Positions 3,401 to 23,461 of a stretch of DNA of 64,000 bases are shown piece by piece. A model generated the notes under the pieces. That model made no database searches, had not been told where the DNA came from, and saw nothing but the letters and a program-made list of their open reading frames with translations. The DNA comes from Deltaproteobacteria bacterium (GTDB lineage Bacteria; Desulfobacterota; Syntrophia; Syntrophales; JACQWR01), in contig JACQWR010000011.1 of NCBI GenBank assembly GCA_016209105.1, forward strand, positions 132,216-196,215, written 5' to 3'. Each line of letters begins with the position of its first letter. Within the stretch, counting starts at the first letter, position 1. Made by a program: the position numbers and the translations under genes.

Positions 3401-3540
3401 GGGCTAAAGACAAGAAACCGGAGCTGTTCACCCAGGGTGATTCGGCAAATCTTCTTACCCCGACAATAGGGGATGCCAATACCATGATTCCGGAAAGCAA
3501 GGCCTTCATGGTTAATCTCGTCAGGAAGGGGGTGGCTTAA
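454..3540 (+). CDS. fdhA: Formate dehydrogenase catalytic (alpha) subunit, periplasmic, selenocysteine-containing molybdopterin enzyme. ORFs 454..1014 and 1063..3540 are one gene read through UGA at 1012..1014.
   Basis: Twin-arginine signal (MRITRRGFLK). N-terminal Cys cluster CPYCSVGC. Both ORFs are in the same frame. The stop context translates as HQARI-U-HSATVAALAESFGRGAMTNHW, the classical FdnG/FdhA Sec motif. The rest is a molybdopterin oxidoreductase. Confidence 0.93.
1012..1047 (+). other. UGA selenocysteine recoding site plus candidate SECIS hairpin
   Basis: In-frame TGA at 1012..1014 at the conserved Sec position. Downstream, ggctctggcagagtc (1032..1046) can form a short stem-loop with a G-rich apical loop. 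The fold was assessed by eye only. Confidence 0.55.
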
Positions 3541-4296
3541 ATGGCCGAACAAATTCAGCTCATTGACACATCAAAATGTACGGGTTGCCGGGGTTGCCAA
3601 GTTGCCTGCAAGCAGTGGAACCAGTTATCGGCCCGGCAGACAACCAACAAAGGCTCTTATCAGAATCCGCCAGATCTTCAGGAAAATACCTGGACGCTTG
3701 TCCGCTTCCGGGAAGTTTCGGAGCAAGACGGCAGGGTGAAATGGACCTTCCGAAAAGACGGGTGTCTGCATTGCACCGACGCCACCTGCGTAAAGGTGTG
3801 CCCGGCCGGCGCCAGATTTCGTTTGAGTAATGGGGCGATAGGTACGGATAATGAAAAGTGCGTAGGCTGCCAGGCGTGCGTCGCTTCCTGTCCTTTCGAA
3901 AAATCCCGGTACTCGGAGGCGGCAAATAAGGCTTACAAATGCAACCTCTGCGCAGACAGGGTACAGGACGGCCTTCTCCCTGCCTGTGTTAAGGCCTGCC
4001 CCACGGGAGCGCTGAAATTTGGTGAAAGAGGGGAAATGCTCAAGTTGGCATACGCGCGGGTAAAGGAATTAGGAGGAGACGCCTCCGTTTACGGGGATAA
4101 ATTCTTCGGCGGAACGCATCTCATTTTTGTTCTTGAAGAAAAGGTTAATCTCTACGACGCCCTGCCCGCAAAACCAAAGGTCGCCTCTTCCGTTTTGTTC
4201 TGGAAGGATCTGCTGCAACCCTTTGGCTTGTGGGAGGCAGGCGCCGGAGTGGTGGTATCGTTTCTCTCCCGCAGCAGGATACACAGGACGGGATAG
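3541..4296 (+). CDS. fdhB: Formate dehydrogenase iron-sulfur (beta) subunit, 4x[4Fe-4S] ferredoxin type
   Basis: Start abuts the fdhA stop. Four Cys clusters are present: CTGCRGCQVACK, CLHCTDATCVKVCP, CVGCQACVASCP, CNLCADRV..ACVKACP. Confidence 0.9.
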   Translation: MAEQIQLIDTSKCTGCRGCQVACKQWNQLSARQTTNKGSYQNPPDLQENTWTLVRFREVSEQDGRVKWTFRKDGCLHCTDATCVKVCPAGARFRLSNGAIGTDNEKCVGCQACVASCPFEKSRYSEAANKAYKCNLCADRVQDGLLPACVKACPTGALKFGERGEMLKLAYARVKELGGDASVYGDKFFGGTHLIFVLEEKVNLYDALPAKPKVASSVLFWKDLLQPFGLWEAGAGVVVSFLSRSRIHRTG

Positions 4297-4354
4297 CGTT
4301 ACCGATTTATTGGAACACCCCTTGGGGGTAAGGTAGGAATCAGATACAAGAAGA

Positions 4355-4382
4355 GGGGAACCGGGCAGTAGGCCGGTTCCCC
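4355..4382. terminator. Bidirectional rho-independent terminator between convergent fdhB and the minus-strand operon
   Basis: Perfect 10-bp stem GGGGAACCGG / CCGGTTCCCC with an 8-nt loop. Flanked by an A/G-rich run on the left and tcttctctgtt on the right. Confidence 0.6.
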
Positions 4383-4408
4383 TCTTCTCTGTTGATAACG
4401 GAAGGTAT

Positions 4409-5137
4409 TTACTGCCCTCCGGGGCAGCGGGCGGGAAGAAATAGTTCTCTAATTTGTGCGGCAGGCAGCACCGCACCAAAGGAAGCGGCCATTCGGTTCA
4501 GCATCTCCTTGCATATGGGCTCGGTTCCGCTTGCAACCCCGTCGCTCACGACAATGATATCAAAATCCCGGTTGAAGGCATCCCGTGCTGTTGACTCCAC
4601 ACAAACATCAGCCGCGACACCGGTAAGGATAAGGGTGTCAATCCCCCAGCAGCGCAGACGCATCTCCAGGTCCGTCTGGTAAAAGGCGCTGGTGCGTCTT
4701 TTGTAAACCGTATGGGCGCCCGGACCGGGCTCCAGGATATCAACAATTTCCGCACCCCAGGTCCCGCGCAGGGCATTATAGTCGTGGCCGCGGGCCTCTC
4801 CCGTAATCCGCACCCGCTCCGGCAGTATCCGATGAAAGCGCCAGTGGTTGTCGCTGCCGTCAGGCTCACGGACCGTAACCACGTAGATGACTTTCACCTC
4901 CTCCGGGAGACTTCGCAGCAGTTGCTGGATGTTGGGAATGATAAGCTGCAGGGGGCCGCAGGGACGGCCCTGCCGGTGATGATAACCGCCGGGAGAAACA
5001 AAATCGTTCTGCATGTCAATAATCAGGAGCGCCGAGCGCCTCGGATCCAAGACGATATCCTGTTGTTCCTTCTGTTTGTTTCTTTTCGGAGCAATGGCGC
5101 CCCGTTTTATTTCCGGACGCACCGGTTCTCCCCCCAC
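4409..5137 (-). CDS. Isochorismatase-family (cysteine) hydrolase
   Basis: Family triad context: LLIIDMQNDF (Asp), YKRRTSAF (Lys), LTGVAADVCVEST (Cys). Last gene of the operon. GTG start 3 nt after the UbiD stop; the exact start is uncertain. Confidence 0.8.
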   Translation of the reverse strand: MGGEPVRPEIKRGAIAPKRNKQKEQQDIVLDPRRSALLIIDMQNDFVSPGGYHHRQGRPCGPLQLIIPNIQQLLRSLPEEVKVIYVVTVREPDGSDNHWRFHRILPERVRITGEARGHDYNALRGTWGAEIVDILEPGPGAHTVYKRRTSAFYQTDLEMRLRCWGIDTLILTGVAADVCVESTARDAFNRDFDIIVVSDGVASGTEPICKEMLNRMAASFGAVLPAAQIRELFLPARCPGGQ

Positions 5138-5140
5138 GAC

Positions 5141-6571
5141 TCAAATCTTATCAATGCGCAAAATCTTCTTTCCCCACTTTTTCATGATCTCCGCCTTATA
5201 TTCCGGCGTCCGCTCGGTGACCTTCGGAAATTCCTTCAGCTTTTCCCAAGGACGGCAAGCGTCAATGATGGCCCGGGAATTGAACGTCGGCTCGCCGGGC
5301 GTCACCAGGGGATCCAGGTTTGAACTCCAGCAGCGATCCATGGTCACGATGTTCGTGGCCGGATCACAGCGGGTAGCCATGGCCCAGAGTACGGCATCCG
5401 TGTCAAAGGGGTCCACATCCTCATCCACAACGATGGTAAAGCGGTTCATGTAGGCGGCGGAATGAACCTGCGAGGCGATCATGCCCGCCTGCCGCGAGTG
5501 ACCGGCAAACCGTTGTTTAATGGCAATGATATTGATCAGCCGCGTTGACCCCGCCTCATGACACCAGACCCCCTTGACCTCCGGCACTCCCGCCGCTTCC
5601 AGTTCATCCCAGAGCAAAGCCGAGCGGATGTAGGAACGGTAGAGATGTTCCGCCGGAGGGCGATGCCCCACATAGACATGGAGGATAGGTTTATTGCGGT
5701 GATAGACGGCCTTCACCCGAAAGACCGGGCAGGGCATGGAACCGGAAGCATGGTAGCCCGGCCATTCCCCATAGGGGCCTTCGGGAAGCAGATCCCCGGG
5801 AACGCACTCGCCTTCCAACGCGATCTCCGCCGTCGCCGGGATAGGCAGGCCGGTATACGCGCCTTTGATGACCTCAACCGGCTTTCCCTGAAGCCCACCG
5901 GTAAAATCGTATTCTGAAATACCCCAGGGGATTTCCATACTGGAGGCCAGGTACAGGGTTGGATCCTGCCCCAGGGTAATCACGGCGGGACAGGGCTTCC
6001 CTTTATCGAAATATTTTGCCCGCTGGAGGGTGCCGTGCTTCCCCGGCGAGATATACCAACCGATGGATTGTTTATCAATGAGCTGTCCCCGATAGGTGCC
6101 GATGTTGACCCAGCCCTCATCGGGGTCCCGGGTGATGGACATGGCGCCCGTGGCAATGTAACGTCCTCCGTCCAGGTGATGGACCAGCGGAACGGGAAAC
6201 TTCAGGAGATTGATATCCCCGCCCGTAATGACATTCTCCATGACCGGCCCTGTCTTGACAAATTTCGGGGGGGTCAGCTTCAGTTCCTTGGATACCTTCC
6301 TCCATCGGTTAATAAAGTCTACCGGTTTGTAGTCCACCGGGAATCCCGCGGTGAGACAGAGGCGGGGGAGGGAACCGAGCACATTGCTCACAATCCTGTA
6401 TCCCGGAGGGTAATCCTTGATATTATCAAAGAGCAGAGCGGGGCGTTTCCCCGGCCTCTGGGAAACGACTTCCTCAATGCATCCGATTTCCAGATTCCAA
6501 TCGGCATGTTCCAGAGATAAGAGCTCCCCCATATCCTCGACTTTTTTAATCCACTCTCGTAAATCCTTCAT
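5141..6571 (-). CDS. UbiD-family (prFMN-dependent) reversible decarboxylase, substrate unknown
   Basis: 476 aa with typical UbiD features (DGGRYIATG, DPDEGWVNIGTYR, EGPYGEWPGY). Paralogous to 54392..55855. Confidence 0.9.
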   Translation of the reverse strand: MKDLREWIKKVEDMGELLSLEHADWNLEIGCIEEVVSQRPGKRPALLFDNIKDYPPGYRIVSNVLGSLPRLCLTAGFPVDYKPVDFINRWRKVSKELKLTPPKFVKTGPVMENVITGGDINLLKFPVPLVHHLDGGRYIATGAMSITRDPDEGWVNIGTYRGQLIDKQSIGWYISPGKHGTLQRAKYFDKGKPCPAVITLGQDPTLYLASSMEIPWGISEYDFTGGLQGKPVEVIKGAYTGLPIPATAEIALEGECVPGDLLPEGPYGEWPGYHASGSMPCPVFRVKAVYHRNKPILHVYVGHRPPAEHLYRSYIRSALLWDELEAAGVPEVKGVWCHEAGSTRLINIIAIKQRFAGHSRQAGMIASQVHSAAYMNRFTIVVDEDVDPFDTDAVLWAMATRCDPATNIVTMDRCWSSNLDPLVTPGEPTFNSRAIIDACRPWEKLKEFPKVTERTPEYKAEIMKKWGKKILRIDKI

Positions 6572-6633
6572 CTCACGCTCCTCGACAGCTTCGGAAACAG
6601 TAACGGCTCCGCCCTCTGGGCGGGGTCTTCACA

Positions 6634-6717
6634 TTAAAGCTCTCCGCAGCAAGCTGCGGAGAATCCTTGATTCCTAAGGAACAAGAACAGTTAAGCATGC
6701 GCTCGCTACCGAATTCA
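6634..6717. repeat. Intergenic repeat family A, short variant lacking the second hairpin
   Basis: ttaaagctctccgcagcaagctgcggagaatccttgattcctaaggaac...gcgctcgctaccgaattca. Sits between the ligase stop and the UbiD start. Confidence 0.7.
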
Positions 6718-8295
6718 TTATCCCTTTGCTGAACCCTGCCGATAACGATCCCGCAGTTTTTTCTTCTCGATCTTTCCCGATCCGGTCTTGGGAAGCGACG
6801 CGACAAAATCTATCGTTTTGGGCGATTTATACCTGGCGATCCTTTCCTTGCAAAAGCCGACGAGTCCCTCCTCCGTGGCTTCCTGGCCGGACCTCAATAC
6901 CACAACCGCCTTGACCGCTTCTCCCCATTTCTCGTCCGGCACGCCCACGACCGCGCATTCCAGCACGGCCGGGTGCATGTACAGTATGTTTTCCACCTCG
7001 GTGGAATAGACATTTTCCCCACCGGTTACGATCATGTCTTTCCGACGATCAACAATCGTCACGTACCCCTCTGCATCCATAACGGCCATATCGCCGGTGT
7101 AGAGCCAGCCATTCTTAATCGCCTGCCCTGTTTCTTCAGGCAATTTCCAGTAGCCCGGCGTTACCGTATCCCCCTTGACAATGATTTCGCCCACCTCCCG
7201 CTCGTCCGTTCTGATTTCGCGCCCTTCGTCCGTTACAACCTTCAGTTCCACGGCGATAAATTCCCGGCCCGTCTTGGACTTAAATTGCAACTGCTCATCG
7301 CTTGATTTTTTGAGCAGGTGTTCCTTGAGGAGGGAAAGCGTCAGGTAGGGACTCGTCTCGGTCATCCCATAGGTTTGTATGTAATCACATTTAAACGTCT
7401 CCACGATCCTGCGGACCACCTCCGGGGCTATGGGCGCGCCGCCGGAGAGCAACACCCGTAAGCTGCGGTAATCGAACCCACCGGCCCCCGGATGATTCAC
7501 CAGCATATTGAGCATGGTGGGAATCAGGTTGGTAAGGGTGACCTTTTCCTTTTCTATCGCGGACAGAACCGTCGGCGGATCGAAATCGTTTACCAGCACG
7601 TGGGCGCCGCCTACCCAGGTTATGGCCCAGGTTGCCCAGGCATCGGCAAGATGGAAAAGCGGCGCCGCATGCAGCCATACGTCCCGGTCGGTGAGATGTA
7701 ATTCTGCGATGGCGCCCAGGGCATGGGTCATCACGTTTTTATGCGTAAGCATTACTCCCTTGGGACGGCCGGTGGTGCCGCTCGTATAGTAGATCTGGGC
7801 TATATCGTCCTCCCCAACCGGTATATCGGGAAGCCCGGCGGCGCTGCCGGTCTGTATTGTTTCATAGGAGTAATCGCGGCCCCCTTCCGGAAGTTCGCCG
7901 GTATCCGTCCCCGTCCAGATAATTGTTTCAATCCCCGGAATATCGCGACACACTGGCCGGATAAGTTCCCGGAAACGGGGATGCACAACCAATACCTCTG
8001 CCTCGGCATCCTTCAGAATAAAAGCAATCTCACCGCCGGACAGTCGGTGGTTCAGGGGCACGCAAACCGCCCCGATCCATATGACCGCATAGTAGGTTTC
8101 CAGAAAATAATGGCAGTTTTGGTGGAGGATGGCAACCCGATCGCCCTTGCTTACCCCCCGTTCCCGCAAAAAGCGGGATAGGCGGTACACACGGGTAAAA
8201 AATTCGCCGTAGGTCCATCGCTTCCCGCCACAGACAATCGTTTCCTTGTCGGCAAAGAACTTGTGCGCCTTTTTCAGGGTATCAGCCAGCAGCAT
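6718..8295 (-). CDS. AMP-forming acyl-CoA synthetase/ligase (class I adenylate-forming enzyme)
   Basis: Motifs YTSGTTGRPKGV, TYGMTE, YTGD, GGENVYSTEVE and a C-terminal SGKI lysine. Confidence 0.9.
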   Translation of the reverse strand: MLLADTLKKAHKFFADKETIVCGGKRWTYGEFFTRVYRLSRFLRERGVSKGDRVAILHQNCHYFLETYYAVIWIGAVCVPLNHRLSGGEIAFILKDAEAEVLVVHPRFRELIRPVCRDIPGIETIIWTGTDTGELPEGGRDYSYETIQTGSAAGLPDIPVGEDDIAQIYYTSGTTGRPKGVMLTHKNVMTHALGAIAELHLTDRDVWLHAAPLFHLADAWATWAITWVGGAHVLVNDFDPPTVLSAIEKEKVTLTNLIPTMLNMLVNHPGAGGFDYRSLRVLLSGGAPIAPEVVRRIVETFKCDYIQTYGMTETSPYLTLSLLKEHLLKKSSDEQLQFKSKTGREFIAVELKVVTDEGREIRTDEREVGEIIVKGDTVTPGYWKLPEETGQAIKNGWLYTGDMAVMDAEGYVTIVDRRKDMIVTGGENVYSTEVENILYMHPAVLECAVVGVPDEKWGEAVKAVVVLRSGQEATEEGLVGFCKERIARYKSPKTIDFVASLPKTGSGKIEKKKLRDRYRQGSAKG

Positions 8296-8340
8296 GTCCC
8301 TTCATCCCACCGATACAACAATGACCACCCGCGAAAACCT

Positions 8341-9015
8341 TCAGGCGAAAGGAATTTCTTTCAGATCTCCGCTTACCGTAAACGTCGCTTCCGTGAGCGC
8401 CTGGATTTCCTCCGGCGTATACCCCGGCGCCGTCTCGGTGAGCACAAGTCCCGCCGGTGTCACATCCATGACCGCCAGATCGGTCACAATCATATTGACA
8501 ACGCCGCGGGCGGTCACCGGCAGAAGGCATTCCTTCAACACCTTGGGCTTGCCCTTCTTGGTCGTATGGGTCAGCATCGCAATCAGGCGCTTCGCATGAC
8601 CCGTAATATCCATGGCCCCGCCGATGATGGGGCAGTCTCCCGGCAGGAGCCAGTTGGCAATGTCGCCTTTTTCCGACACCTCAAAGGTGCCCAGGACGGA
8701 AAGGTCAATGTGCCCCCCCCTGAGCATGGTAAACGCCTCCACACTGGAAAAACAGGCCGCACCGGGGATAAGAGACAACGGTCTCCTCCCCAATCCCATG
8801 AGGTCGCGGTCCTTCTGGGCATCCGTGGCCACCGTCCCCACTCCCAGAACGCCGTGTTCGATATGCACCATGGACCAGATATCTCTCGATATGTAATTGG
8901 CCACCGGGAAAGGCATGCCGGCGCCCAGATTGACGCAGTAGCCGTCCTTCACCTCCATCGCCACCCGTTTGCACATTTCATTTTCCGTCAGGGGACGTTT
9001 AGAATCTTGGCGCAT
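8341..9015 (-). CDS. Family I CoA-transferase, subunit B
   Basis: ScoB/AtoA-like sequence with a conserved Glu context (HIEHGVLG). Overlaps the subunit A gene by 17 nt. Confidence 0.85.
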   Translation of the reverse strand: MRQDSKRPLTENEMCKRVAMEVKDGYCVNLGAGMPFPVANYISRDIWSMVHIEHGVLGVGTVATDAQKDRDLMGLGRRPLSLIPGAACFSSVEAFTMLRGGHIDLSVLGTFEVSEKGDIANWLLPGDCPIIGGAMDITGHAKRLIAMLTHTTKKGKPKVLKECLLPVTARGVVNMIVTDLAVMDVTPAGLVLTETAPGYTPEEIQALTEATFTVSGDLKEIPFA

Positions 9016-9682
9016 AGCACCCTCCTTTTACTATTCTATCCACATAGATCCCCGGCGTATGAATTTCGTTGGGATTCAAAGCGCCGACCCCGACAATATT
9101 TTCCACTTCCGCGATGACAACCTTCGCCGCCGTGGCCATGGTGGGGTTGAAGTTTTGCCCCGTATACCGGTATTGCAGGTTCCCCCATCTGTCAGCCACA
9201 AAGGCCTTGATGAAGGCAAAATCAGCCTTGAGCGGCGTCTCAAAAACGCAGGGTTTCCCCTCAATGACCTTTTTTTCCTTTTTCTCCGCCAGCAGCGTTT
9301 CCGCGCCCACGTCCGTATAAAACCCGAACAGGCCGTTTCCGCCATGGCGTATCCTCTCCACGAATATCCCCTGGGAGCACACCTCAAACTCCAGTTCGCC
9401 GGCCTTGAATTGCTTGATGAACTCTTGATTCCAGGAGTGGTAGGAGCCGATGAATTTGCGAATCCGCTTCTCTTTAACGAGCGGGTGGCAGCCGTAGATG
9501 ATCCCGTCACGGTCATTGCCCGGATCGCTGGCAATCGCCGTAATATTTCTTGTCCCCTTCGCAACCAGTTCCCGGATCAGGTTTTCTGGATCACCGGTCG
9601 GCCCCCAGCCGCCAAACATGATCGTCGCCCCGTCGAAGACGTCCGCAATCGCTTCCGCACAACTTGCGTAAATCTTGTTCAT
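8999..9682 (-). CDS. Family I CoA-transferase, subunit A
   Basis: ScoA/AtoD-like N-terminus (IADVFDGATIMFGGWG). Paired with subunit B. Confidence 0.85.
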   Translation of the reverse strand: MNKIYASCAEAIADVFDGATIMFGGWGPTGDPENLIRELVAKGTRNITAIASDPGNDRDGIIYGCHPLVKEKRIRKFIGSYHSWNQEFIKQFKAGELEFEVCSQGIFVERIRHGGNGLFGFYTDVGAETLLAEKKEKKVIEGKPCVFETPLKADFAFIKAFVADRWGNLQYRYTGQNFNPTMATAAKVVIAEVENIVGVGALNPNEIHTPGIYVDRIVKGGCYAPRF

Positions 9683-9718
9683 CTATTACACCTCCCCTTG
9701 TCAGCACCATAGGGTTTT

Positions 9719-9843
9719 GCAGGCTGCTCAAAAAGCCCAGATGCAAGGCCCCCGAAATACTTCGCCATGAGGCGTACTGTTGCGTACGTCGAATGGCGAA
9801 GGATGAGGGAAACGCCGCAGATGGGCATTTTTCAGCAGCCTGC
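9719..9843. repeat. Intergenic repeat family B (MITE/REP-like, terminal inverted repeats)
   Basis: Ends gcaggctgctcaaaaa ... tttttcagcagcctgc are inverted, with an internal palindrome cttcgccatgaggcgtac..gtacgtcgaatggcgaag. Homologous copies lie at 43638..43884 and 62268..62393. Confidence 0.7.
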
Positions 9844-11027
9844 TAATCATTTCTCTCCAGGACCATGACGCCCGCCATCGCGGCGGGTCCGCCCAGGCAA
9901 TGGGCAAGCCCCCGGCGCGCGTTCTTCACCTGCCGCTTGCCCGCCTTCTCCTGAAGCTGCTGCGTCACTTCGTACACCATGCGGATACCCGAAGCGCCCA
10001 GCGGATGACCAAAGGCCTTTAAGCCGCCATCGGTGTTTACCGGCAGCTCCCCTCCCAAGGAGGTCACCCCCTCCTCGATCAGCTTCCATCCCTGGCCCTT
10101 CGGGGCAAACCCCAGGTCTTCATAGTTCAGTATCTCCGTAATCGTAAAACAGTCATGACACTCCGCCATGTCGATCTCCCGGCGGGGGTCCTTCACGCCC
10201 GCCTGTTCATACGCCATCCGGGCGGCCGTCTGGGTTACCTTGAAATTGAGAAAATCAAAGCCCGGCTCAAAAATGTTGCGTTCCGTCCCCACCGCAAACC
10301 CGATGCCCGCCACCTTGACGAAGTCGGGATTGAAGTTCTTCGCCATATCGGCGCGGGTAACGATTGCCGCCGCGGCCCCGTCGCAGCTTGCCGTGGAATC
10401 CAGCACGGAAAGCGGTTCTGCAACCCAGGGCGACTTGAGCACGTCTTTCAGGGTGATTTCCCGCTGCATGTTGGCCTTCGGGCTCAGGGTGCCGTGGTGG
10501 TGATTCTTTACCGCCACCTTGGCCAGCGTTTCCCGGCCGATGCCGTATTCATGGAAATACCGATGGGCGCAGCTGGCAAAAAAACTGGGGGCCGTTCGTC
10601 CCTTGCCGATCAGGGGATGGCCGTCGGTACGGTTGGCGAGCATTAGGCTCCGGGAGCCGGCATCGCGCATCTTCTCCACGCCCACAGCCAGGGCAACATC
10701 ATACATGCCGGAAGACACGGCCAGGCAGGCATTCCTGAGGGCATCAATGCCCGTCGCGCAGATATTGGAAATCAGCGTCACCGGCTTGTAGAGGAAACCC
10801 AGCGCCTCGGCCAGAGGGCTGCCGATGTTCCGTTCTCCCGCAATCCAGGGACGATACGATCCCAGCCATGCCGCTTCCACCTCTTTGTGCAGCTCCACGC
10901 CCGCATCGGCGCAGGCCTCAAAGGTAGCATCCACCACGAGGTCGCCCCAGCTTTTGGTGAAATGCTCGCCGAATTTGGTACAGCCCACACCGATAATGGC
11001 AACCGGTTCTTTCATTACACCCGACAT
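9843..11027 (-). CDS. Thiolase-superfamily protein, SCP-x / archaeal acetoacetyl-CoA thiolase / BbsB type
   Basis: Nucleophile context SNICATG. C-terminal GHPLGASG and CLGGP motifs. Confidence 0.85.
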   Translation of the reverse strand: MSGVMKEPVAIIGVGCTKFGEHFTKSWGDLVVDATFEACADAGVELHKEVEAAWLGSYRPWIAGERNIGSPLAEALGFLYKPVTLISNICATGIDALRNACLAVSSGMYDVALAVGVEKMRDAGSRSLMLANRTDGHPLIGKGRTAPSFFASCAHRYFHEYGIGRETLAKVAVKNHHHGTLSPKANMQREITLKDVLKSPWVAEPLSVLDSTASCDGAAAAIVTRADMAKNFNPDFVKVAGIGFAVGTERNIFEPGFDFLNFKVTQTAARMAYEQAGVKDPRREIDMAECHDCFTITEILNYEDLGFAPKGQGWKLIEEGVTSLGGELPVNTDGGLKAFGHPLGASGIRMVYEVTQQLQEKAGKRQVKNARRGLAHCLGGPAAMAGVMVLERND

Positions 11028-11031
11028 ATTC

Positions 11032-12510
11032 CTACCTCCCTATGGCCGGTCTCGCCTTCCAGAAATAATTAGGCAGCTCCTGCCCGTCATGCAGCTTGCG
11101 GAAGCTGAGCTCCACATCCAGGCCGATACGCATATCCTGGGGATTCACATCAGTCACCTGGCAGAAGATGCGCCCGCCCCCTTCCAGATCAACGGCTGCC
11201 AGAGACTCCGGGGGGTCGGGATTGAGATACAGGTAATCATTCGTATAGGTATACACCCTCCCGCGGCGACTGAGCTTAAAATCTTCCATCTGGTCTTTCG
11301 CGCCGCAATGGTGGCAGACCCGGCGACGGGGGAAGGCAAGGGTGCCGCAGGCGGTGCATTTGACCCCGGTAAGCTTCATATTTTGCTTCTCCTCCCGCCA
11401 CAGCAGGGCCATGGAGGTAAAGGCATCGTAGGAACTCTCGCCGATCACATCGCGGAAGTTCAGATATTTCGCATAGCTGGTTAGTGGCCGCTGCCGCTTC
11501 AGGAATTCCGGGACGCCGCGGCAACCTTCCGCCTTGCCGATATTCTCGGTCACCCGAAGCAAGAACGCCTCGGCGCCGTCTCCGTACCCCGCGACAATCA
11601 GCCGCTCTCCCGGTTTTGCCTTGGCGAGCACTGCCGCGAGGCTCAAGAACACCTGCGCATTGCCGGTATCTCCGATGCTTTTCAGGAGGCCATCGGCCAG
11701 TTGCGTCTCCGGATTGAAACCGGCCTTGCGGGCAAGACGGACCGCCAGACGGGCATTGGGAGCATAGACAATCAGTTTGGCCACATCGCCCGCCGCGATT
11801 CCCGCCTTCTTAAGCAGCCCTTTCAACGCCTCATTCATGAGCGGGATATAGCCGTAATCCTCGACAAACCGCGCATCCGTCGTCTGCACGTAGGGATCCT
11901 GTTCGCGCCGCCAGAAGTGGGGAAAATTGGCATTCACGACAACGTGCGCTTCCACACCGGCCAGGACATTTTCCCGTCCCACAAGCACCGCCGCCGCCCC
12001 GTCCCCGAATGCCTGCTCCTCACCGGAAGCGGGGGCAGCCATCCGACGGTCGCTGGCCACGACCAGGGCCGCATCGGCAGGCGAGCCTTCCTTGAGGGCG
12101 CCAACCGCCATGCCGAGAGCCGTCATGCCGCCCCTGAGACTGCCGTTTATGTCCGTCACCAGCGCCGACCGATTCATATCCAAAACGGCAGCCAAAACGC
12201 TGGACGCGTGCTTTTCCCGATAGGGGGAACTGGCGCTGGCAAAAAAAAGGGCCGCCAAGTTCGTCGCGGCAAACGGAATGCCGAACGAGCGCGCATAATT
12301 ATCCGCACATTCCCAGCAAGCATCCACGCCCATCGTCAGGGCGTCCTCGTCGTACTGGGCCACCGCCCTCCCGCCGCCGGACGCCCGCGCCCCCGTTGCC
12401 TGGGCAATGACCTCACGGGACAGGCGATATGCCGGCACATAAACCCCGAAAGCTGAGATTCCTACCACGTTCTTCACCTCACGTTGCTGTTGATAATCCC
12501 TTGTTGACAC
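11032..12510 (-). CDS. Fusion of an HMG-CoA-synthase/KAS-III-like domain (apparently degenerate active site) with a C-terminal DUF35 zinc-ribbon/OB-fold domain
   Basis: The N-terminal ~350 aa look HMGCS-like. The C-terminus has CTACGTLAFPRRRVCHHCG (rubredoxin-like ribbon) plus an OB fold typical of DUF35. It sits next to a thiolase, as in thiolase/HMGCS/DUF35 and BbsAB-type complexes. Confidence 0.75.
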   Translation of the reverse strand: MSTRDYQQQREVKNVVGISAFGVYVPAYRLSREVIAQATGARASGGGRAVAQYDEDALTMGVDACWECADNYARSFGIPFAATNLAALFFASASSPYREKHASSVLAAVLDMNRSALVTDINGSLRGGMTALGMAVGALKEGSPADAALVVASDRRMAAPASGEEQAFGDGAAAVLVGRENVLAGVEAHVVVNANFPHFWRREQDPYVQTTDARFVEDYGYIPLMNEALKGLLKKAGIAAGDVAKLIVYAPNARLAVRLARKAGFNPETQLADGLLKSIGDTGNAQVFLSLAAVLAKAKPGERLIVAGYGDGAEAFLLRVTENIGKAEGCRGVPEFLKRQRPLTSYAKYLNFRDVIGESSYDAFTSMALLWREEKQNMKLTGVKCTACGTLAFPRRRVCHHCGAKDQMEDFKLSRRGRVYTYTNDYLYLNPDPPESLAAVDLEGGGRIFCQVTDVNPQDMRIGLDVELSFRKLHDGQELPNYFWKARPAIGR

Positions 12511-13872
12511 TCACCCTGCCGCTTTAAACGGTCCTCTCGCCAGCATGGCGTTGACATCCTCCGCCCTCATGGCGTAACGGAGCAGAAACTCCTCATCGTC
12601 CATATCGGCGCCGGCCCCGATTTGCCTGCGCAGTTCCGCAATGGACGGCTGGGGAAATTCCTCTGCCATCATTTTCTTCACCTTGGGAACGCTCGTTATC
12701 TTATCCAGGATCGTGGGATCAATCGGCACCGGGGAAGGGCCGAAGTATCCGGCGACATATTCCATAACGCCGCTCGATATCACTTTATACCGCTCCCCGG
12801 ACATGACGTTCATCGTTGCCTGGCTTCCCACCATTTGCGAAAGGGGCGTCACCATGATGGGCCAGCCCAGTTCCTTGCGCACCCGGATGATCTCTTCCAT
12901 GACTTCCGGCAGACGATCCTCCATCTTCCCCTCTTTCAACTGGCGCTTCATGGTGCTTACCATCCCTCCGGGCAGCTGATGCTCGTAAATGGAGATGTCA
13001 TACTCGAACGGCACGCCCCGCGGCTTGCCCGTTTTTGCCGCCACCTCCTCCAGATAGGAAGCCATCGCGGCAAGCGCCTCGGCATTAATCTTGGCCGTAT
13101 ATCCCATATATTTAATGTTGTTCAGGATGTTATATATGGAGGGCTGGGCGGTGCCGTTGGCCACCGGCGGCACACCGGTGTGGACGATGTGGACGCCCAT
13201 GCGAATGGCCTCAAGATAGACGAGCGGCGCCAAGCCGGTATTGCAGTGGGAATGGATTTCCAGTGTCTTGCCGTTCAGGTGGGCCTGCACCGCCGGAACC
13301 AGCGTCTTGATCCGCTCCGGCGTCAGAAGACCTCCCTGATCCTTGATGTATACCGTATTCACGTCGGGATCATGGGTCAGCTCCCCGGTAAGGCGGCCGA
13401 AAAATTCATCGGTATGGACGGGACTGAGCGAAAAGGAGAGGGCGATAACCGTTTCTTCGATGCCGACTGCCTTGCACATGTGCGCCACCTTGAGCAGCGA
13501 TGAAACCTCATGGGCGGCGTCCAGTATCCATACCCGTCTGATGCCGTTGGCCTTCATACGCTTAATCACCAGTGCGAGGATGGAATCGGGCGTCCGCTTG
13601 AATCCGATGAAGCGCCGGCTCGTCGTCCCAAAGCTCAAGGGGGTGTCCGGCATGGCTTGCACGGCCAGGCGCACCCGCTCCCAAGGATTTTCCCGGTGGT
13701 AGCGGACAGCGGTATCCATACCGGAATTGCTGATAAAATCCACCGCCCGGAACCCCACCTTGTTCACCTGGGGGGCAATGGCCAGAACATCGCCCGTGGT
13801 GATTCCCGTGGCATCCCAGAGCGACTGGTTTCCGTCTCTGAGACTGGTGTCAATGAACTGTATTTCTTGCAT
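12511..13872 (-). CDS. Carboxyltransferase of the pyruvate carboxyltransferase / oxaloacetate decarboxylase alpha / transcarboxylase 5S type, without a biotinyl domain
   Basis: IQFIDTSLRDGNQS, YIKDQGGLL (carbamyl-Lys context) and EIHSHCNTG (HxH). Preferred start is ATG at 13872, preceded by AAGGAGAAAACT; the ORF track start is 13893. Confidence 0.85.
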   Translation of the reverse strand: MQEIQFIDTSLRDGNQSLWDATGITTGDVLAIAPQVNKVGFRAVDFISNSGMDTAVRYHRENPWERVRLAVQAMPDTPLSFGTTSRRFIGFKRTPDSILALVIKRMKANGIRRVWILDAAHEVSSLLKVAHMCKAVGIEETVIALSFSLSPVHTDEFFGRLTGELTHDPDVNTVYIKDQGGLLTPERIKTLVPAVQAHLNGKTLEIHSHCNTGLAPLVYLEAIRMGVHIVHTGVPPVANGTAQPSIYNILNNIKYMGYTAKINAEALAAMASYLEEVAAKTGKPRGVPFEYDISIYEHQLPGGMVSTMKRQLKEGKMEDRLPEVMEEIIRVRKELGWPIMVTPLSQMVGSQATMNVMSGERYKVISSGVMEYVAGYFGPSPVPIDPTILDKITSVPKVKKMMAEEFPQPSIAELRRQIGAGADMDDEEFLLRYAMRAEDVNAMLARGPFKAAG

Positions 13873-14090
13873 AGTTTTCTCCTTGGCGACCAACGTGGAT
13901 GAAAGAAAGGCGGGAACGATACGTGCTTACCCCCTGTGCAAGCGCGTCCTCAATATGCATTGGTAAGCACAACACTCGATTGTTTTAGCTACCACACTTT
14001 GCCAAATCAGGCAAATCCGTTTTAACGGGGAAAACGGAGAAGCTGTCTCCCCGGTGGTCTTCACCGGAAGCTTTCGGAAGGCATTTAGTA

Positions 14091-14106
14091 AGCAATATGC
14101 ATGCCA
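14091..14106 (-). promoter_or_regulatory. sigma54 promoter candidate (minus strand) TGGCAT-N5-TTGCT
   Basis: The reverse complement of agcaatatgcatgcca reads TGGCATGCATATTGCT. It lies about 220 bp upstream of the first operon gene and downstream of the sigma54 activator gene. Confidence 0.5.
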
Positions 14107-14400
14107 GCGCCCCGAAACGAGGGGAGCTCCGTCTCAAACACGGCAGCATTGCGGCAAAGAAGACCTCGCCGCACATGGAAAAGCCCATCGGCCTGTGCTG
14201 AAGGAAAAAATATTCTTACGATGAGAACTCAATACGGAGGAACCGAAAAGGAACCCCCACGACCGCGACGGCCTCACCCTACGCCCTCGGCATGCCCCTG
14301 GGGCACTTCCGCACCCGATGAAGTGGAGTGATGTTCGCTTGTTATGATGGCCATCCGTGCCGGGGAACAGGAATATGGATGTTGAGGATAACAGCAAAAT

Positions 14401-14458
14401 AAACACTTGCCGCCGTGTTTACGCCTCTTCTCTTTTCTGGAATATTCCACGGAAGAGA
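14401..14458 (-). terminator. Hairpin pair downstream of the activator gene, a possible terminator
   Basis: Stem cttctctt/aagagaag encloses the palindrome tggaatattcca. It is followed (minus-strand sense) by an aaacac/gtgttt hairpin and then ATTTTGCTGTT. Confidence 0.35.
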
Positions 14459-14469
14459 AGCGCTGCTGT

Positions 14470-15882
14470 TCAGAAATTGGATGTCTTGATACGCTTATAG
14501 AGGGTAGCAAGGGAAATTCCCAGCGCCTCTGCCGCCGCTCGCTTCCCCTTCAGCGTGGTTCCATAAACGGATAGGGCCCGTTGAATCAAGAGGCGCTCCT
14601 GTTCGGTTAAAGACATTATGCCCTGTTCCCTTCCGTCGTCTGCGGGAAAGGCTTTTTTCGCACGCTCCTTTGCCATCATTCCGCCGGGAGGAACTTCCGG
14701 CAACAGCAGGACCTCCGCCGGAATACGCACCGTATCCACCAGATTGGCGGCCCGCTCAAGGACATTTTCCAACTCCCGGATATTGCCCGGCCAGCGGTAG
14801 GCAAGCAGTTTTTTCATCGCCCCCGGCTCTATCCCCGCCAGTTGCTTCCCCAACTCACGATTGAGCCGCTTGAGAATGTGTTTTGTAAGAAGGGGGATAT
14901 CCTGCATCCGCTCGCGCAAGGACGGTATGGCAATATCCACCACATTCACCCGATAGTACAATTCCTCACGGAAAAGGCCTTCCCGAACCATCCGGGGCAA
15001 ATCCCGGTTCGTTGCCACAATGACCCGCACATCCACCTGTACCGGTTGCCAGCCGCCCAGACGCGTCACCCCGCCATCTTCCAGCACCCGGAGCAGCTTG
15101 CTCTGGAGGGAAAGACTCATGTCGCCGATCTCATCCAGAAAAATCGTCCCGCCGTCGGCGCGCTCGAAGAGGCCCATCTTGCGCGCCACGGCGCCGGTAA
15201 ACGCCCCTTTTTCATGGCCAAAAAACTCGTTCTCCAGCAAATTTTCGGGAATGGCGGCGCAGTTGATCTTCAGGAACGGCTGTCCGGCCCTGGGCCCGGC
15301 ATTGTGCATGGCATGGGCAAACAGCTCTTTTCCCGTACCGCTTTCGCCCGTAAGGAGCACCGTGGAAGCGCCGGCAGCAGCCTTCCTCGCTATTTCCAAC
15401 ACCTTCCGCAATTTCGATGAAGTGCCGATGATATTATCGAAAGAATATCGGGCGCCGCACAGACCGGCAAGCTTCTCCGTCAACGACTCTACGAGAAGAT
15501 TTCTCTGCGACAATTTTCTGGTGAGTTCCAGAACATCGGAAATGTCCTGGCAGAAGGAAACCCCTCCCCTGATTCTTCGCTCCACGATCAGGGGGGAGGC
15601 ATTCACGATCAGCTCTGCTTTCGAGCCTTCCGGCTGATACCGGTAACCGTAGACCGGCTTGCCGGTGCCGATTGCCTGGCGGAGCGGCCCAAAGGGGGGC
15701 TCCGGCTTGAGCAGCCGGCTTATTTCCTTTTTGGCATTCCGGCCGGTCATCTTTACATAAGCCGGGTTTACATAACAGACCATGCAGCCGGCATCCGCAA
15801 TCATGATGCCTTCCAGGGCGCAATCAAGAATGGCCAGGATCTCCGGCGTCAGGCTCTTCAGACTGTTCTTCAGAAGGGACAC
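14470..15882 (-). CDS. sigma54-dependent transcriptional activator (PAS sensor + AAA+ + Fis-type HTH)
   Basis: GESGTGKE Walker A, GAFTGA loop (EKGAFTGA) and a C-terminal HTH (AAEALGISLATLYKRIK). Confidence 0.9.
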   Translation of the reverse strand: MSLLKNSLKSLTPEILAILDCALEGIMIADAGCMVCYVNPAYVKMTGRNAKKEISRLLKPEPPFGPLRQAIGTGKPVYGYRYQPEGSKAELIVNASPLIVERRIRGGVSFCQDISDVLELTRKLSQRNLLVESLTEKLAGLCGARYSFDNIIGTSSKLRKVLEIARKAAAGASTVLLTGESGTGKELFAHAMHNAGPRAGQPFLKINCAAIPENLLENEFFGHEKGAFTGAVARKMGLFERADGGTIFLDEIGDMSLSLQSKLLRVLEDGGVTRLGGWQPVQVDVRVIVATNRDLPRMVREGLFREELYYRVNVVDIAIPSLRERMQDIPLLTKHILKRLNRELGKQLAGIEPGAMKKLLAYRWPGNIRELENVLERAANLVDTVRIPAEVLLLPEVPPGGMMAKERAKKAFPADDGREQGIMSLTEQERLLIQRALSVYGTTLKGKRAAAEALGISLATLYKRIKTSNF

Positions 15883-15930: not shown

Positions 15931-17046
15931 TCAGGAAAGCGGCGGCAGGTCGGCTTTTTCGACCTCGTACACCGATTCCATCTTGGGCGTAAGGCCGCGC
16001 TTCGCCAGCTCCGCGGCAAAGGTCTCCCGGATGAAGGCATCCTCATCGGCGTAATCAATCTGGGCTCCGCCAAGGCGCCTGCTGATCCAGCACAGCGGCA
16101 CCCCCTGCTCATTGCGGGCCGATACCCCCGCGAACTTGAACGCCAGATAGCTCGCCGGCGTGGTGCCGGTATTGAAGTGCTGATGGTACCATCCCTCGGG
16201 CGGCACGATCAGGCTGCCCTCTTTCCAATCGTAACGGTTGGGCTTGCCGCCTTCCGGCCACATGAGGCTGTATCCTTCCCCGTTCAAGACCATGACGTGG
16301 GCGCCGGGCCCGTGGGCATGCGCCTTTTTATACGTTGCGACGGGGAACTGGGAGATATGGCTGGGCAGAGACCCCTTGGCCAGGTTGAACCGGATATGGC
16401 CGCCGCCGCCGCCCCGTTCCTTGGTGAACACCAGGGGCAGATTGACGGCATCGGCAACAAAGTTTGTTTCCAGAAGCAGCCCCTTCTGTTCACCCTTTTT
16501 GCTGAAATAGTCCCGTTCGCCGGCGAAACGCTTCGGGAAATCGCGGGCGGTATTGAAGACGAAATCCACGTCATCGTAGAGATTCATCACCTGGGGGGCG
16601 TTCGTCACGCCCACATAGCGGGCCGCCGACTTTCCGGAAACGTTGAAATGCTGGTGCCAGGCATTGAGCGGTATGGCAAACAGCGCCCCCGCCTTCCACT
16701 CGAAGGTCACGCGCTGGCCCGCATCGTTCCATACGGATGTGGACCCGCGCCCGTCCAGGATATAGACCAGCTCTTCAAAGAGCTGCCGCTGCGGTTCGAG
16801 CTGCTTGCCCGCCGGGATCTCACAGATATAGCAGTCATTGGAATAATTCGACGCCTCGTGGTTGATGTAAACGCCGTAACCGCCGCGTCGGGCCCAGGGC
16901 TTCAGCCCCACCGTATGGAGATTCGGGATGTAGTGGCCGCTGATGATATCAAGCCCTTCCCCCCTGACCCAGGCCTTGTAAACGGAGTCTTTCTCCGTGG
17001 CGAATTTTTTTGCGAATTCTTCCGATACGACGATGTTATTTGCCAT
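15931..17046 (-). CDS. Bicupin protein, gentisate-1,2-dioxygenase-like fold family, function unknown
   Basis: Two cupin barrels, each ending in a W(H/Y)HQHFN motif. The C-terminal barrel has HAHGPGAH. Preferred start is ATG at 17046 (MANNIVV) behind GAGGGAGG. Paralog of 18925..20052. Confidence 0.75.
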   Translation of the reverse strand: MANNIVVSEEFAKKFATEKDSVYKAWVRGEGLDIISGHYIPNLHTVGLKPWARRGGYGVYINHEASNYSNDCYICEIPAGKQLEPQRQLFEELVYILDGRGSTSVWNDAGQRVTFEWKAGALFAIPLNAWHQHFNVSGKSAARYVGVTNAPQVMNLYDDVDFVFNTARDFPKRFAGERDYFSKKGEQKGLLLETNFVADAVNLPLVFTKERGGGGGHIRFNLAKGSLPSHISQFPVATYKKAHAHGPGAHVMVLNGEGYSLMWPEGGKPNRYDWKEGSLIVPPEGWYHQHFNTGTTPASYLAFKFAGVSARNEQGVPLCWISRRLGGAQIDYADEDAFIRETFAAELAKRGLTPKMESVYEVEKADLPPLS

Positions 17047-17153
17047 AGAAACAGCCTCCCTCGCTTTCAATAAAGATCGCAGCGGCATCTGTCCTGCCGC
17101 ATACCCTTCCCGGCAGCAATCCCCTTTCTCCGTTATCGCCGGACTCAACCGCC

Positions 17154-18813: not shown

Positions 18814-18927
18814 TTAAAGCTCCCCTTGAGCACGCTGCAAAGAATCTTTGGTTCTTAAGAAACACCATCAGCATTCGCTCGCTTACCCCGCGGCTTGCCG
18901 CGGGGAATGCGCTCGCTGCCGAATTCA
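18814..18927. repeat. Intergenic repeat family A, full-length copy
   Basis: ...attcgctcgcttaccccgcggcttgccgcggggaatgcgctcgctgccgaattca. Abuts the stop codon of bicupin 2. Confidence 0.75.
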
Positions 18928-20052: not shown

Positions 20053-20296
20053 GTTACTTCTCTCCTTTCTGTTATGCACCACGAAGGGGGCTAACGGGTT
20101 TTACGGTATAGATACGCGGGGTTTCCTCTGCTATTTCCGATCGAGTATGGACATGTCTGCCATTTACTGTCAAGCTCTTTTTTATGCGCCCTCCCTTCCG
20201 TGACGAAACAGGACATCAAGAAGACGCACCGTGAAGCTCCCCGCACACAGGGCGGGGCGTGCAGGTGCGCCCCCGGTCAGAGGCCGAGGCGCAATA

Positions 20297-21046: not shown

Positions 21047-21140
21047 AGGACAAAGTCTTCCCGATGCCTTAAAAAAGCGGGGGACGGGCACTCGACCCAC
21101 CCCCCTCTTATTACTATAACGTTCCTACGCAGGAATTCGC

Positions 21141-21356: not shown

Positions 21357-21418
21357 TTTCCTTACCTCCATTTTGATTGTAGGATGACACCCGCCCCCCA
21401 TGCAGCAGCAGACGTCAA

Positions 21419-21527: not shown

Positions 21528-21539
21528 AAATACCGCGCC

Positions 21540-23452: not shown

Positions 23453-23461
23453 CGGTTCTTC

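Follow-up and report, generated by a model that had tools for sequence, protein, structure and literature searches.

Lignin, ethylphenols and bisphenol A give rise to aryl methyl ketones, among them 4-hydroxyacetophenone, acetovanillone and acetosyringone, and the pathway of aryl-ketone carboxylation was solved only in 2022, in aerobes or denitrifiers. In Aromatoleum aromaticum EbN1, anaerobic degradation of p-ethylphenol and 4-hydroxyacetophenone involves the carboxylase HacABC, the ligase AcsA1 and the thiolase TioL1 and leads to 4-hydroxybenzoyl-CoA for HcrABC, with a sigma54 promoter and the sigma54-dependent regulator EtpR at the Hac, AcsA1 and TioL1 genes. The Hpe system of Rhodococcus rhodochrous GD02 and the Acv system of Sphingobium sp. 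SYK-6 consist of a PpsAB-like kinase, a BCCP (biotin carboxyl carrier protein), a biotin carboxylase (BC) and a PycB-like carboxyltransferase (CT), a HAD phosphatase, a CoA ligase as well as a beta-ketoacyl-CoA hydrolase/thioesterase. Rhodococcus HpeCBA has been shown to carboxylate 4-phospho-acetophenones, while AcvE of the SYK-6 acetovanillone carboxylase is PycB-like and the gene order is kinase-kinase-BCCP-BC-CT-phosphatase. Here, these systems are compared with an eight-gene operon of an uncultured Syntrophales bacterium, located on the minus strand of a 64,000-nt stretch of contig JACQWR010000011.1 (positions 132,216 to 196,215), which is referred to below as the window.

The operon may encode an anaerobe's route of methyl-ketone carboxylation and thiolysis, as for 4-hydroxyacetophenone and acetovanillone, and we put the chances of this reading at about even. 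It is based on family memberships, on the loss or retention of catalytic residues and on conserved neighbourhoods, from which we infer the substrate and the direction of the first step. In such a route, the PAS-sigma54 activator would switch on the -24/-12 promoter, and the CT would carboxylate the methyl group of a ketone, most probably an aryl methyl ketone, with CO2 taken from carboxybiotin, to yield an aroylacetate (a beta-keto acid). The 3-oxoacid CoA-transferase, or the acyl-CoA ligase with ATP, would then form the beta-ketoacyl-CoA, and the SCP2-type thiolase, in complex with a dead HMG-CoA-synthase (HMGCS)-like/DUF35 fusion, would release aroyl-CoA and acetyl-CoA. The aroyl-CoA would enter the benzoyl-CoA pathway. 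All components come from families already known, and the core follows the logic of an established pathway. What is new is that the host is a strict anaerobe, that the design conserves the thioester, that a pseudo-HMGCS/DUF35 scaffold is part of a defined pathway and that BC, kinase and phosphatase are apparently lacking. The operon suggests a thioester-conserving version of the pathway in uncultured Syntrophales-like fermenters and syntrophs, with CoA-transferase and thiolase replacing ligase and hydrolase. If true, the known breakdown routes for lignin monomers and plastic additives would reach methanogenic and iron-reducing sediments, and the question would be raised of how a ketone can be carboxylated without the ATP cost of CO2 activation.

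The features of the operon are as follows, with the basis of each assignment in brackets.

14470-15882, minus strand: activator with PAS and sigma54-interaction (AAA+) domains (Pfam PAS_8, Sigma54_activat, AAA_lid_14)
14091-14106, minus strand: candidate sigma54 (-24/-12) promoter TGGCATGCATATTGCT (one mismatch to TGGCAC-N5-TTGCW)
12511-13872, minus strand: PycB/5S-type CT with no biotin domain (HMGL-like and PYC_OADA)
11032-12468, minus strand: pseudo-HMG-CoA synthase fused to DUF35, i.e. Zn ribbon and OB fold (Pfam; alignment to 6ESQ)
9843-11027, minus strand: SCP2/archaeal-type thiolase (Pfam, scores to structural relatives, motif reading)
9719-9844, no strand: 126-nt palindromic repeated element, non-coding (fills the gap between the thiolase and CoA-transferase A genes)
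8999-9682, minus strand: 3-oxoacid CoA-transferase subunit A, family I (CoA_trans; TIGR02429 pcaI_scoA_fam)
8341-9015, minus strand: 3-oxoacid CoA-transferase subunit B, family I (CoA_trans; TIGR02428 pcaJ_scoB_fam)
6718-8295, minus strand: AMP-forming acyl-CoA ligase, PRK06187 subfamily (Pfam/NCBIfam)
5141-6571, minus strand: UbiD-family (prenylated flavin mononucleotide, prFMN) (de)carboxylase, PhdA/PpcB/VdcC-like (Pfam/NCBIfam, motifs)
4409-5137, minus strand: isochorismatase-family cysteine hydrolase (PF00857, Asp-Lys-Cys triad)
4352-4385, minus strand: terminator-like G+C-rich hairpin 3' of the last gene (AGAGGGGAACCGG-loop-CCGGTTCCCCTCT followed by TCTTGTATCT)

Domain content of the open reading frames (ORFs) was determined by Pfam/NCBIfam profile scans, which recovered all eight minus-strand genes and domains listed in the initial annotation, over a span of 4409-13872. 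The CT gene starts at the ATG at 13872, preceded by an AAGGAG ribosome-binding site (RBS), and not at the TTG at 13893. The fusion gene starts at the GTG at 12468 with a GAGGTG RBS, and its homologues have 478 aa; homologue lengths are in line with both of these starts. The description of the genes as tightly packed holds for five junctions (42, 4, -17, 45 and 3 nt, the negative value being the overlap of the CoA-transferase A and B genes), but not for two gaps of about 150 nt. One of these, the 160 nt between the thiolase and CoA-transferase A genes, is occupied by the 126-nt repeat, and the other, the 146 nt between the ligase and UbiD genes, contains a hairpin without a good T-run. Extra copies of the repeat are found at 62270-62391 (88.5%) and 43789-43884 (partial), and it is also present in the same intergenic gap of locus L004 (4770-5119), from a related Syntrophales metagenome-assembled genome. 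The element is REP/MITE-like, with palindromic ends AGCAGGCTGCTGAAAAA...TTTTTGAGCAGCCTGC. An Rfam scan of window positions 1-26000 gave no RNA family. The eight genes are presumably co-transcribed.

For comparison, 80 metagenome loci were retrieved with the CT alignment, and the window proteins and a few reference proteins were mapped onto them; L-numbers denote metagenome or genome loci recovered as homologous contigs. The gene order of the operon is repeated in L001, L004, L065, L066 and L067, with 65-93% amino-acid identity between shared genes. Therefore, the cluster is a conserved unit and not a chance juxtaposition. L067 carries all eight genes in identical order, tightly packed and with overlapping junctions, L065 has the first five core genes plus an MFS transporter, and L001 lacks the hydrolase gene and has a FecR gene inserted. 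The hydrolase gene follows the CoA-transferase B gene in L002, L003, L067, L068, L073 and L099, and in L002 a UbiD gene lies inside the core, between the CT and HMGCS-like genes. Acid activation had initially been placed at the centre of the pathway, whereas the conserved core consists of CT, 3-oxoacid CoA-transferase and thiolase, i.e. the formation and cleavage of a beta-keto acid. No paper describing this cluster was found in the literature, and related genes are absent from the papers on the benzene 'Magic' cluster and on phenol in D. anilini.

Carboxyltransferase and thiolase core

The CT scores 217 bits to PycB (5KS8) and keeps the metal Asp, the carbamylatable Lys (KCX), His-x-His and PGG-x-x-Ser. 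Among the 87 CT family members examined, the metal Asp, the Lys, His-x-His and the Ser/Thr proton shuttle are all conserved, and the pyruvate-binding motifs WGGATFD and LLRGQN are replaced in every one. The family members are not pyruvate carboxylases. A split pyruvate carboxylase/oxaloacetate decarboxylase was rejected on the basis of these replacements (87/87) and of the catabolic neighbourhoods. The CT is 44.6% identical to that of plasmid pBAR1 of the bisphenol-A degrader Sphingomonas bisphenolicum versus 31-32% to true OadA. On pBAR1, the CT gene is accompanied by carotenoid-oxygenase, aldehyde dehydrogenase, thioesterase, BKACE (beta-keto-acid cleavage enzyme), Tm-1-like, BCCP, BC and HAD genes. 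Pseudomonas putida YC-AE1, likewise a bisphenol-A degrader, carries a plasmid-borne CT (43.9% identity) that has acetoacetate-CoA-ligase-like, Tm-1-like, BCCP, BC and HAD genes as neighbours. On pRB98 of the oxybenzone degrader Rhodococcus oxybenzonivorans (38% identity), the CT gene comes after those for PEP-utilising kinases, an AMP-binding ligase, BCCP and BC, and DUF35, thiolase and phosphatase genes follow directly, so that CT-DUF35-thiolase occurs in the exact order of the window.

Among the more distant 'type II' relatives of the CT, in loci with enough flank, a BCCP gene is found upstream in 21/31 and a BC gene in 15/31. Since these loci are preceded by BCCP and BC genes, the family corresponds to the CT part of a carboxylase that depends on ATP and biotin. 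Downstream of the family CTs, three non-homologous sets of genes are found: BKACE, a family-III CoA-transferase with a canonical thiolase, or the HMGCS-like/DUF35 protein with thiolase and family-I CoA-transferase. A beta-keto acid as the product of the carboxylase is the common denominator of these three solutions. Judged by its sequence, the CT is a predicted member of an AcvE/HpeB/HacB-like family, within the 'type I' clade and with a remodelled pyruvate pocket.

The second part of the core is the pair of thiolase and HMGCS-like/DUF35 fusion, whose genes adjoin in almost every one of the 61 recovered genome loci. An alignment with 6ESQ (chain I), an archaeal HMGCS, shows that the HMGCS-like domain has lost the catalytic Glu (to Ala), Cys (to Leu) and His (to Tyr). 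The name HMGCS-like, if taken to mean a synthase, is thus misleading, as this is a pseudoenzyme. Leu111 is at least 90% conserved in the clade and the CxxC...CxxC motif is invariant. The catalytic set of the thiolase is complete (Cys90, HDCF291-294, GHP340-342 and Cys377), and its scores fall from 229 bits (7YVY) and 207 bits (thiolase of 6ESQ) to 163 bits (BbsB) and 101 bits (PhlC). From these residues, the fusion is predicted to be a non-catalytic scaffold partner of a competent thiolase.

Two other roles for the pair were rejected. A true HMG-CoA synthase in a mevalonate-like role, as in the archaeal thiolase/HMGCS/DUF35 complex, is excluded by the lost catalytic residues, the window fusion, unlike the archaeal one, being no HMG-CoA synthase. 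A PhlACB-like Friedel-Crafts or C-acyltransferase was dismissed because the thiolase has HDxF (HDCF), which PhlACB lacks, and scores 101 bits to PhlC vs 207-229 to acetoacetyl-CoA thiolases; the pair is thus unlike PhlACB, not a CoA-independent C-acyltransferase.

A 2026 study described fused ACAT/HMGS-DUF35 proteins without the catalytic tetrad in about 1,000 unassigned bacterial loci, and found the Pseudomonas fluorescens complex to catalyse nothing but thiolysis, of acetoacetyl-CoA (PMC12960953). The window pair has the same traits: it is fused, the tetrad is lost and the thiolase has Cys, HDxF and GHx. Related to this complex are the archaeal thiolase/HMGCS/DUF35 complex, PhlACB and BbsAB. 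In contrast to the Pseudomonas genes, which have no neighbouring polyketide synthase or nonribosomal peptide synthetase and no assigned role (PMC12960953), the window pair lies inside a defined catabolic operon. The pair was at first thought to fit no pathway that could be named; however, CT, CoA activation and thiolase (with DUF35) follow the logic of Hac/Xcc, Hpe and Acv. If the proposed route is true, one of these roughly 1,000 HMGS-ACAT-DUF35 loci gains a physiological role.

The enzyme classes needed for CoA activation of a beta-keto acid and removal of a C2 unit are present, namely CoA-transferase, ligase and a competent thiolase, the substrates being putative. CoA-transferase subunit A scores 224 bits to TIGR02429, above the cutoff, and subunit B 241 bits to TIGR02428, at the cutoff. 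Among solved structures, the ligase comes closest to 8WEU (a fatty-acyl-CoA synthase by annotation) and 8WEV (feruloyl-CoA synthetase), with about 337 bits to each. The ligase is also 31-32% identical to AMP-binding proteins of Rhodococcus CT clusters.

Aromatic-CoA context and missing partners

Downstream of the module, L002 and L073 carry genes of a three-subunit Mo enzyme, the large subunit of which scores 548 bits to 4-hydroxybenzoyl-CoA reductase (HCR; 1RM6_A), with a CO dehydrogenase (344 bits) as the next match and 302 bits to quinoline 2-oxidoreductase. After the identical eight-gene operon, L067 has genes for an aldehyde:ferredoxin oxidoreductase-type protein (AOR; 671 aa), a ferredoxin-like protein (183 aa) and Fer4/CCG proteins, which by their sizes and domains probably encode a BamBCD-like class II benzoyl-CoA reductase. 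The suggested tie to aromatic-CoA metabolism is strengthened by these HCR-like or BamBCD-like genes abutting orthologous operons and by the acd-gcdA-gcdC genes of the window (21141-24613, minus strand), and support is also given to the description as a catabolic operon of a strict anaerobe that is unassigned and under sigma54 control.

Compared by gene classes and descriptions, not by direct sequence comparison, the operon resembles the Hac/Xcc systems in being anaerobic, in its sigma54 promoter and sigma54-dependent regulator, in its biotin-type CT, CoA activation of a beta-keto acid and thiolytic release of acetyl-CoA to an aroyl-CoA, and, in related loci, in the HCR-type reductase beside the module. 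It differs in that BC and BCCP are missing, the ligase is from another subfamily and is joined by a family-I CoA-transferase, an SCP2-type thiolase bound to the pseudo-HMGCS/DUF35 protein takes the place of TioL1, the regulator senses by PAS and not by V4R, and UbiD and the cysteine hydrolase are extra. With Hpe and Acv, it shares the CT family (by the description of AcvE as PycB-like and through the plasmid homologues at 38-45% identity), the sequence from methyl ketone over beta-keto acid and CoA ester to C2 removal and, in sister loci of the window clade, the PpsAB-like kinase. Unlike in Hpe and Acv, the operon has no kinase, BC, BCCP or HAD phosphatase, its host is a strict anaerobe and the thioester would be conserved by CoA-transferase and thiolase instead of being hydrolysed. 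The phthaloyl-CoA and isophthaloyl-CoA decarboxylase systems likewise combine UbiD with CoA-activating enzymes in an anaerobic aromatic pathway. However, the UbiD of the operon is distant (65 bits), the CoA-transferase is of another family and the core genes have no counterpart.

The UbiD protein has the domains UbiD_N, UbiD and UbiD_C, reaches 284 bits to TIGR00148 against a cutoff of 245 and has intact prFMN and catalytic motifs, NIGTYR161 (NxGxYR) and E264GPYGE269 (EGPYGEW). Its best solved relative is the phenazine-1-carboxylate decarboxylase PhdA (7PDA, 354 bits), and its best NCBIfam models are PpcB (292 bits, cutoff 469) and VdcC (290 bits), both below cutoff. The initial comparison with phthalate-type UbiD enzymes did not hold, with only 65 bits to phthaloyl-CoA decarboxylase (8OZ5/8PMK) vs 354 to PhdA and about 290 to PpcB and VdcC. 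The set for phenylphosphate carboxylase (PpcABCD) is incomplete, with one UbiD in the operon and no Pps or HAD genes in the window. As reported initially, two UbiD paralogs are found in the window, that of the operon and one at 54392-55855 (49% identical). UbiX is missing from the 64 kb, in that no Flavoprotein domain was found in the scanned ORFs and a tblastn search with an approximate E. coli UbiX sequence gave a best E of 2.2. In L067, the position of the operon UbiD is taken by a UbiD2-type protein, and in L002, L068 and L099 such proteins are encoded upstream of the module.

The second UbiD belongs to a second aromatic-acid module at 49241-56607, with TctB/TctA (a tripartite tricarboxylate transporter, TTT, at 49241-51270), the UbiD gene itself and a class II aldolase-family protein at 55906-56607 with weak similarity to 3,4-dihydroxyphthalate decarboxylase. 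In L153 (Bacillaceae), a TctCAB and aldolase-II pairing lies beside a bicupin/EutA/NicO set.

The cysteine hydrolase has the triad Asp41-Lys146-Cys179 in the expected motifs (PF00857, 139 bits) and is closest to RutB/BiuH-type amidohydrolases at 80-100 bits (BiuH 100 vs a cutoff of 370, RutB 96 vs 378). It was rightly described as an amidase-like protein that does not fit a known pathway. Both UbiD and the hydrolase are firmly linked to the module, yet without counterparts in these three systems. The UbiD protein may act in a peripheral step, with an imported hydroxy- or hetero-aromatic acid being (de)carboxylated at the ring, and the hydrolase might replace the phosphatase or thioesterase of the known pathways or be an amidase for an amide-bearing substrate.

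The window contains a single BCCP gene, located beside gcdA and 7 kb upstream of the CT gene.

21141-21401, minus strand: small biotin carboxyl carrier protein of 86 aa with AMKM motif (Biotin_lipoyl, 83 bits)

This BCCP is a possible partner of the CT; the 'type I' loci yielded no further BCCP motif. The nearest sister CT clade, with 53-63% identity (L074, L075, L078 and L080), is also without BCCP and BC, and its flanks contain PpsA/PpsB-like kinases, UPF0261 (Tm-1-like ATP-binding) proteins, PaaK-like ligases and an isochorismatase-like gene, which suggests a BC-free variant of phospho-ketone carboxylation chemistry.

Several observations weigh against a ketone-carboxylating operon. No BC is found in the operon or in the 64-kb window, and in the window CT clade (at least 53% identity) BCCP or BC genes are present in 0/6 loci with enough upstream flank, so that the biotin dependence of this clade is only putative. 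PEP-utilizers, PPDK_N, UPF0261 and HAD domains are missing among the window ORFs scanned, i.e. no kinase or phosphatase was found. The link from the CT to AcvE, HpeB and HacB runs via the plasmid homologues and the descriptions in the papers, and not via direct alignment. BbsB is less similar to the thiolase than are acetoacetyl-CoA thiolases of the archaeal/SCP2 type. Homologues of UbiD with 55% identity adjoin xanthine-dehydrogenase-type hydroxylases, Amidohydro_1 and ABC transporters, an N-heterocycle-like context, and the TRAP/TTT carboxylate transporters with one or two UbiD proteins in related loci suggest that a (hetero)aromatic acid is imported, and not a neutral ketone. The missing BC and BCCP in cis, the missing kinase and phosphatase and the unplaced UbiD and hydrolase keep aliphatic, N-heterocyclic and mosaic alternatives alive.

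Competing readings

Unlikely, in our estimate, is an aliphatic route, in which the CT carboxylates acetone, levulinate or 5-oxohexanoate to acetoacetate, 3-oxoadipate or 3-oxopimelate, and CoA-transferase and thiolase yield acetyl-CoA together with acetyl-, succinyl- or glutaryl-CoA. The 5-oxohexanoate could come, e.g., from resorcylate via resorcinol and 1,3-cyclohexanedione, with UbiD stripping the ring carboxyl group and the hydrolase opening the cyclic beta-diketone. Such a route would agree with the PcaIJ/ScoAB 3-oxoacid family of the CoA-transferase, with a thiolase closest to acetoacetyl-CoA thiolases, the Pseudomonas fused complex cleaving acetoacetyl-CoA (PMC12960953), and with the TRAP, TTT and MFS carboxylate transporters flanking related loci. 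The five core genes of L065, accompanied by an MFS transporter only, and the glutaryl-CoA dehydrogenase and GcdA/GcdC genes 7-10 kb upstream of the CT also fit, although acd and gcdA are equally expected for a benzoyl-CoA pathway. HCR-like or BamBCD-like genes directly following the module in three loci, and the position of the nearest CTs of cultured organisms in hydroxyacetophenone-type clusters, speak for the aryl-ketone route instead, and no reductase or beta-diketone hydrolase is identifiable for the aliphatic one.

The operon could also serve the degradation of an N-heteroaromatic acid, which we regard as improbable. Here, an imported pyridine or aza-arene carboxylate would be decarboxylated by the PhdA-like UbiD, the ring would be opened, the amidase would cut the amide and CoA-transferase and thiolase would take the beta-keto-acid fragment. 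Phenazine-1-carboxylate decarboxylase as best solved relative of UbiD (354 bits), the hydroxylase, Amidohydro_1 and ABC transporter genes beside the 55%-identical UbiD homologues and the Asp-Lys-Cys triad that the hydrolase has in common with RutB/BiuH/nicotinamidase-type amidases are in line with this. However, the adjoining Mo enzyme is specifically HCR-like (548 vs 344 vs 302 bits), the CT is left without a role and the operon has no ring reductase or ring-opening amidohydrolase.

It is quite improbable that the operon is a mosaic, i.e. that the CT is a biotin-free beta-keto-acid/oxaloacetate decarboxylase and that the eight genes are two or three independent modules (5 + 1 + 2) on a shared strand. 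The lack of BCCP and BC in cis in the window clade, the two gaps of about 150 nt, one with a hairpin, and the variants L065 (first five genes only) and L001 (no hydrolase, FecR insert) would be explained, but not the identical, tight eight-gene order with overlapping junctions in L067, the hydrolase after CoA-transferase B in five further loci (L002, L003, L068, L073 and L099) or the occurrence of a UbiD gene between the CT and HMGCS-like genes in L002. Furthermore, the CT residues for biotin-linked proton transfer are kept.

A long shot, with little chance of being right, is a glutaconyl-CoA:ketone transcarboxylase. In this case, the alpha subunit of glutaconyl-CoA decarboxylase (GcdA) would load the GcdC-like carrier and the carboxybiotin would go to the AcvE-like CT with no ATP-dependent BC, so that CO2 from the lower benzoyl-CoA pathway would carboxylate the next ketone molecule. 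The acd-gcdA-gcdC genes lie 7-10 kb upstream and encode a non-decarboxylating glutaryl-CoA dehydrogenase (acd, 734 bits to NF045552), GcdA (722 bits to 1PIX) and the small BCCP described above; no membrane GcdB subunit is found in the window. The three protein classes of the propionibacterial transcarboxylase (12S + 5S + 1.3S) are represented within 10 kb of the window, by a 12S-class protein (GcdA), a small biotin carrier and a 5S-class CT. In contrast to that enzyme, the 12S-class protein is a bona fide GcdA, the genes are in separate transcription units and the arrangement is not conserved in other loci. Transcarboxylation would account for the BC missing in cis at every locus of the window CT clade and, if true, would give an energy-starved syntroph ATP-free ketone activation.

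The least supported is the model of the initial annotation, and a very improbable one, in which an aromatic di-acid is converted by ligase or CoA-transferase to a CoA ester and UbiD decarboxylates the aryl-CoA, as for phthalate, isophthalate and terephthalate: ligase, CoA-transferase and UbiD do occur together, TTT transporters, often for phthalate isomers, are present in the window (49241-51270) and in related loci, and a class II aldolase weakly like 3,4-dihydroxyphthalate decarboxylase lies beside the second UbiD, but the UbiD scores given above are against it, the CoA-transferase is of the 3-oxoacid family I and not of the family III succinyl-CoA:phthalate type, and the CT and thiolase complex, the most conserved core, would be unaccounted for.

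Regulatory elements and neighbouring genes

The PAS-sigma54 activator upstream of the operon is confirmed by its Pfam domains, and NCBIfam alignments to NtrC/AtoC/PrdR-type proteins reach residue 466-468 of 470. The proposed sigma54 promoter at 14091-14106 has correctly spaced GG and GC, 219 nt before the first ATG. By count, the motif is not significant, with 5 matches (at most one mismatch) in the window vs 2.0+/-1.4 expected, and 5/100 shuffles reach 5 matches. A strict search for the motif upstream of the orthologous operons gave nothing, while a relaxed reading gave motifs similar to TGGCATGCATATTGCT in two loci only, L065 (CGGCATGTATATTGCG) and L068 (TGGTATATTATTTGC), upstream of the homologous operon. 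The promoter is kept as a candidate, in the right position though not significant by count.

A 34-nt near-perfect palindrome is located at 14427-14460, just past the stop codon of the activator gene, and a 17-nt inverted repeat with a 20-nt spacer at 14340-14393, 240-290 nt upstream of the -24 element. These could be a terminator, activator binding sites or both. Another sigma54-like motif, TGGCATGTCCATTGCA, is found at 241-256, upstream of the formate dehydrogenase genes. An identical 16-mer, TGGCACCAGCATTTCA, with one mismatch to the sigma54 consensus, occurs at 16644-16659 and 19650-19665 (minus strand) inside both bicupin genes described below; it mirrors the paralogy of these genes and is no promoter.

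The genes at 454-4296 (plus strand) converge on the operon and are unrelated in function. They encode a periplasmic selenocysteine formate dehydrogenase, with an in-frame TGA at 1012-1014 in FdhA, 972 bits to the tungsten formate dehydrogenase of D. gigas (1H0H) and an FdhB-like 4Fe-4S subunit at 3541-4296. With this product, the idea of a gallate/pyrogallol/phloroglucinol pathway, with 454-4296 as transhydroxylase, was discarded.

Between the activator gene and the upstream cluster lies a bicupin gene at 15931-17148 (minus strand), with its real start at about 17058. Together with a second bicupin gene at 18925-20082 (74% identical), it flanks a EutA-like ASKHA ATPase (17154-18695), and a MinD/CooC-like P-loop ATPase (20297-21100) precedes this set. 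The bicupin family is very large (more than 6,450 proteins) and conserved to an unusual degree: its top 120 members, from Deltaproteobacteria, Acidiferrobacterales and Bacillaceae, all show 71-92% identity. At other sites, the bicupin occurs together with the EutA-like ATPase and a NicO Ni/Co permease, and one locus combines it with lignin-aromatic genes (LigXa/LigAB). The bicupin lies directly before the CT gene in L004 and near CT genes in L073, L128, L147 and L148. Its sole, weak solved relative is gentisate 1,2-dioxygenase (22 bits), its AlphaFold model is of low confidence (pLDDT 30) and no paper on it was found in the literature. Possibly, the bicupin is a metal-dependent enzyme matured by ATPases of its own, and it may be more novel than the operon.

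Further downstream in window coordinates, the regions 26737-33848 and 40134-42607 encode an MtrB/PioB-type outer-membrane porin, an adjacent multihaem cytochrome, ResB/CcsA-type cytochrome c maturation proteins, c7-type cytochromes and a cytochrome b561, and represent an extracellular electron-transfer kit in a genome that, by its best matches, seems to be Syntrophales-like. The region 58126-61583 (plus strand) contains a radical SAM gene resembling lysine-2,3-aminomutase and, after it, two ATP-grasp genes of the D-Ala-D-Ala-ligase-like kind.

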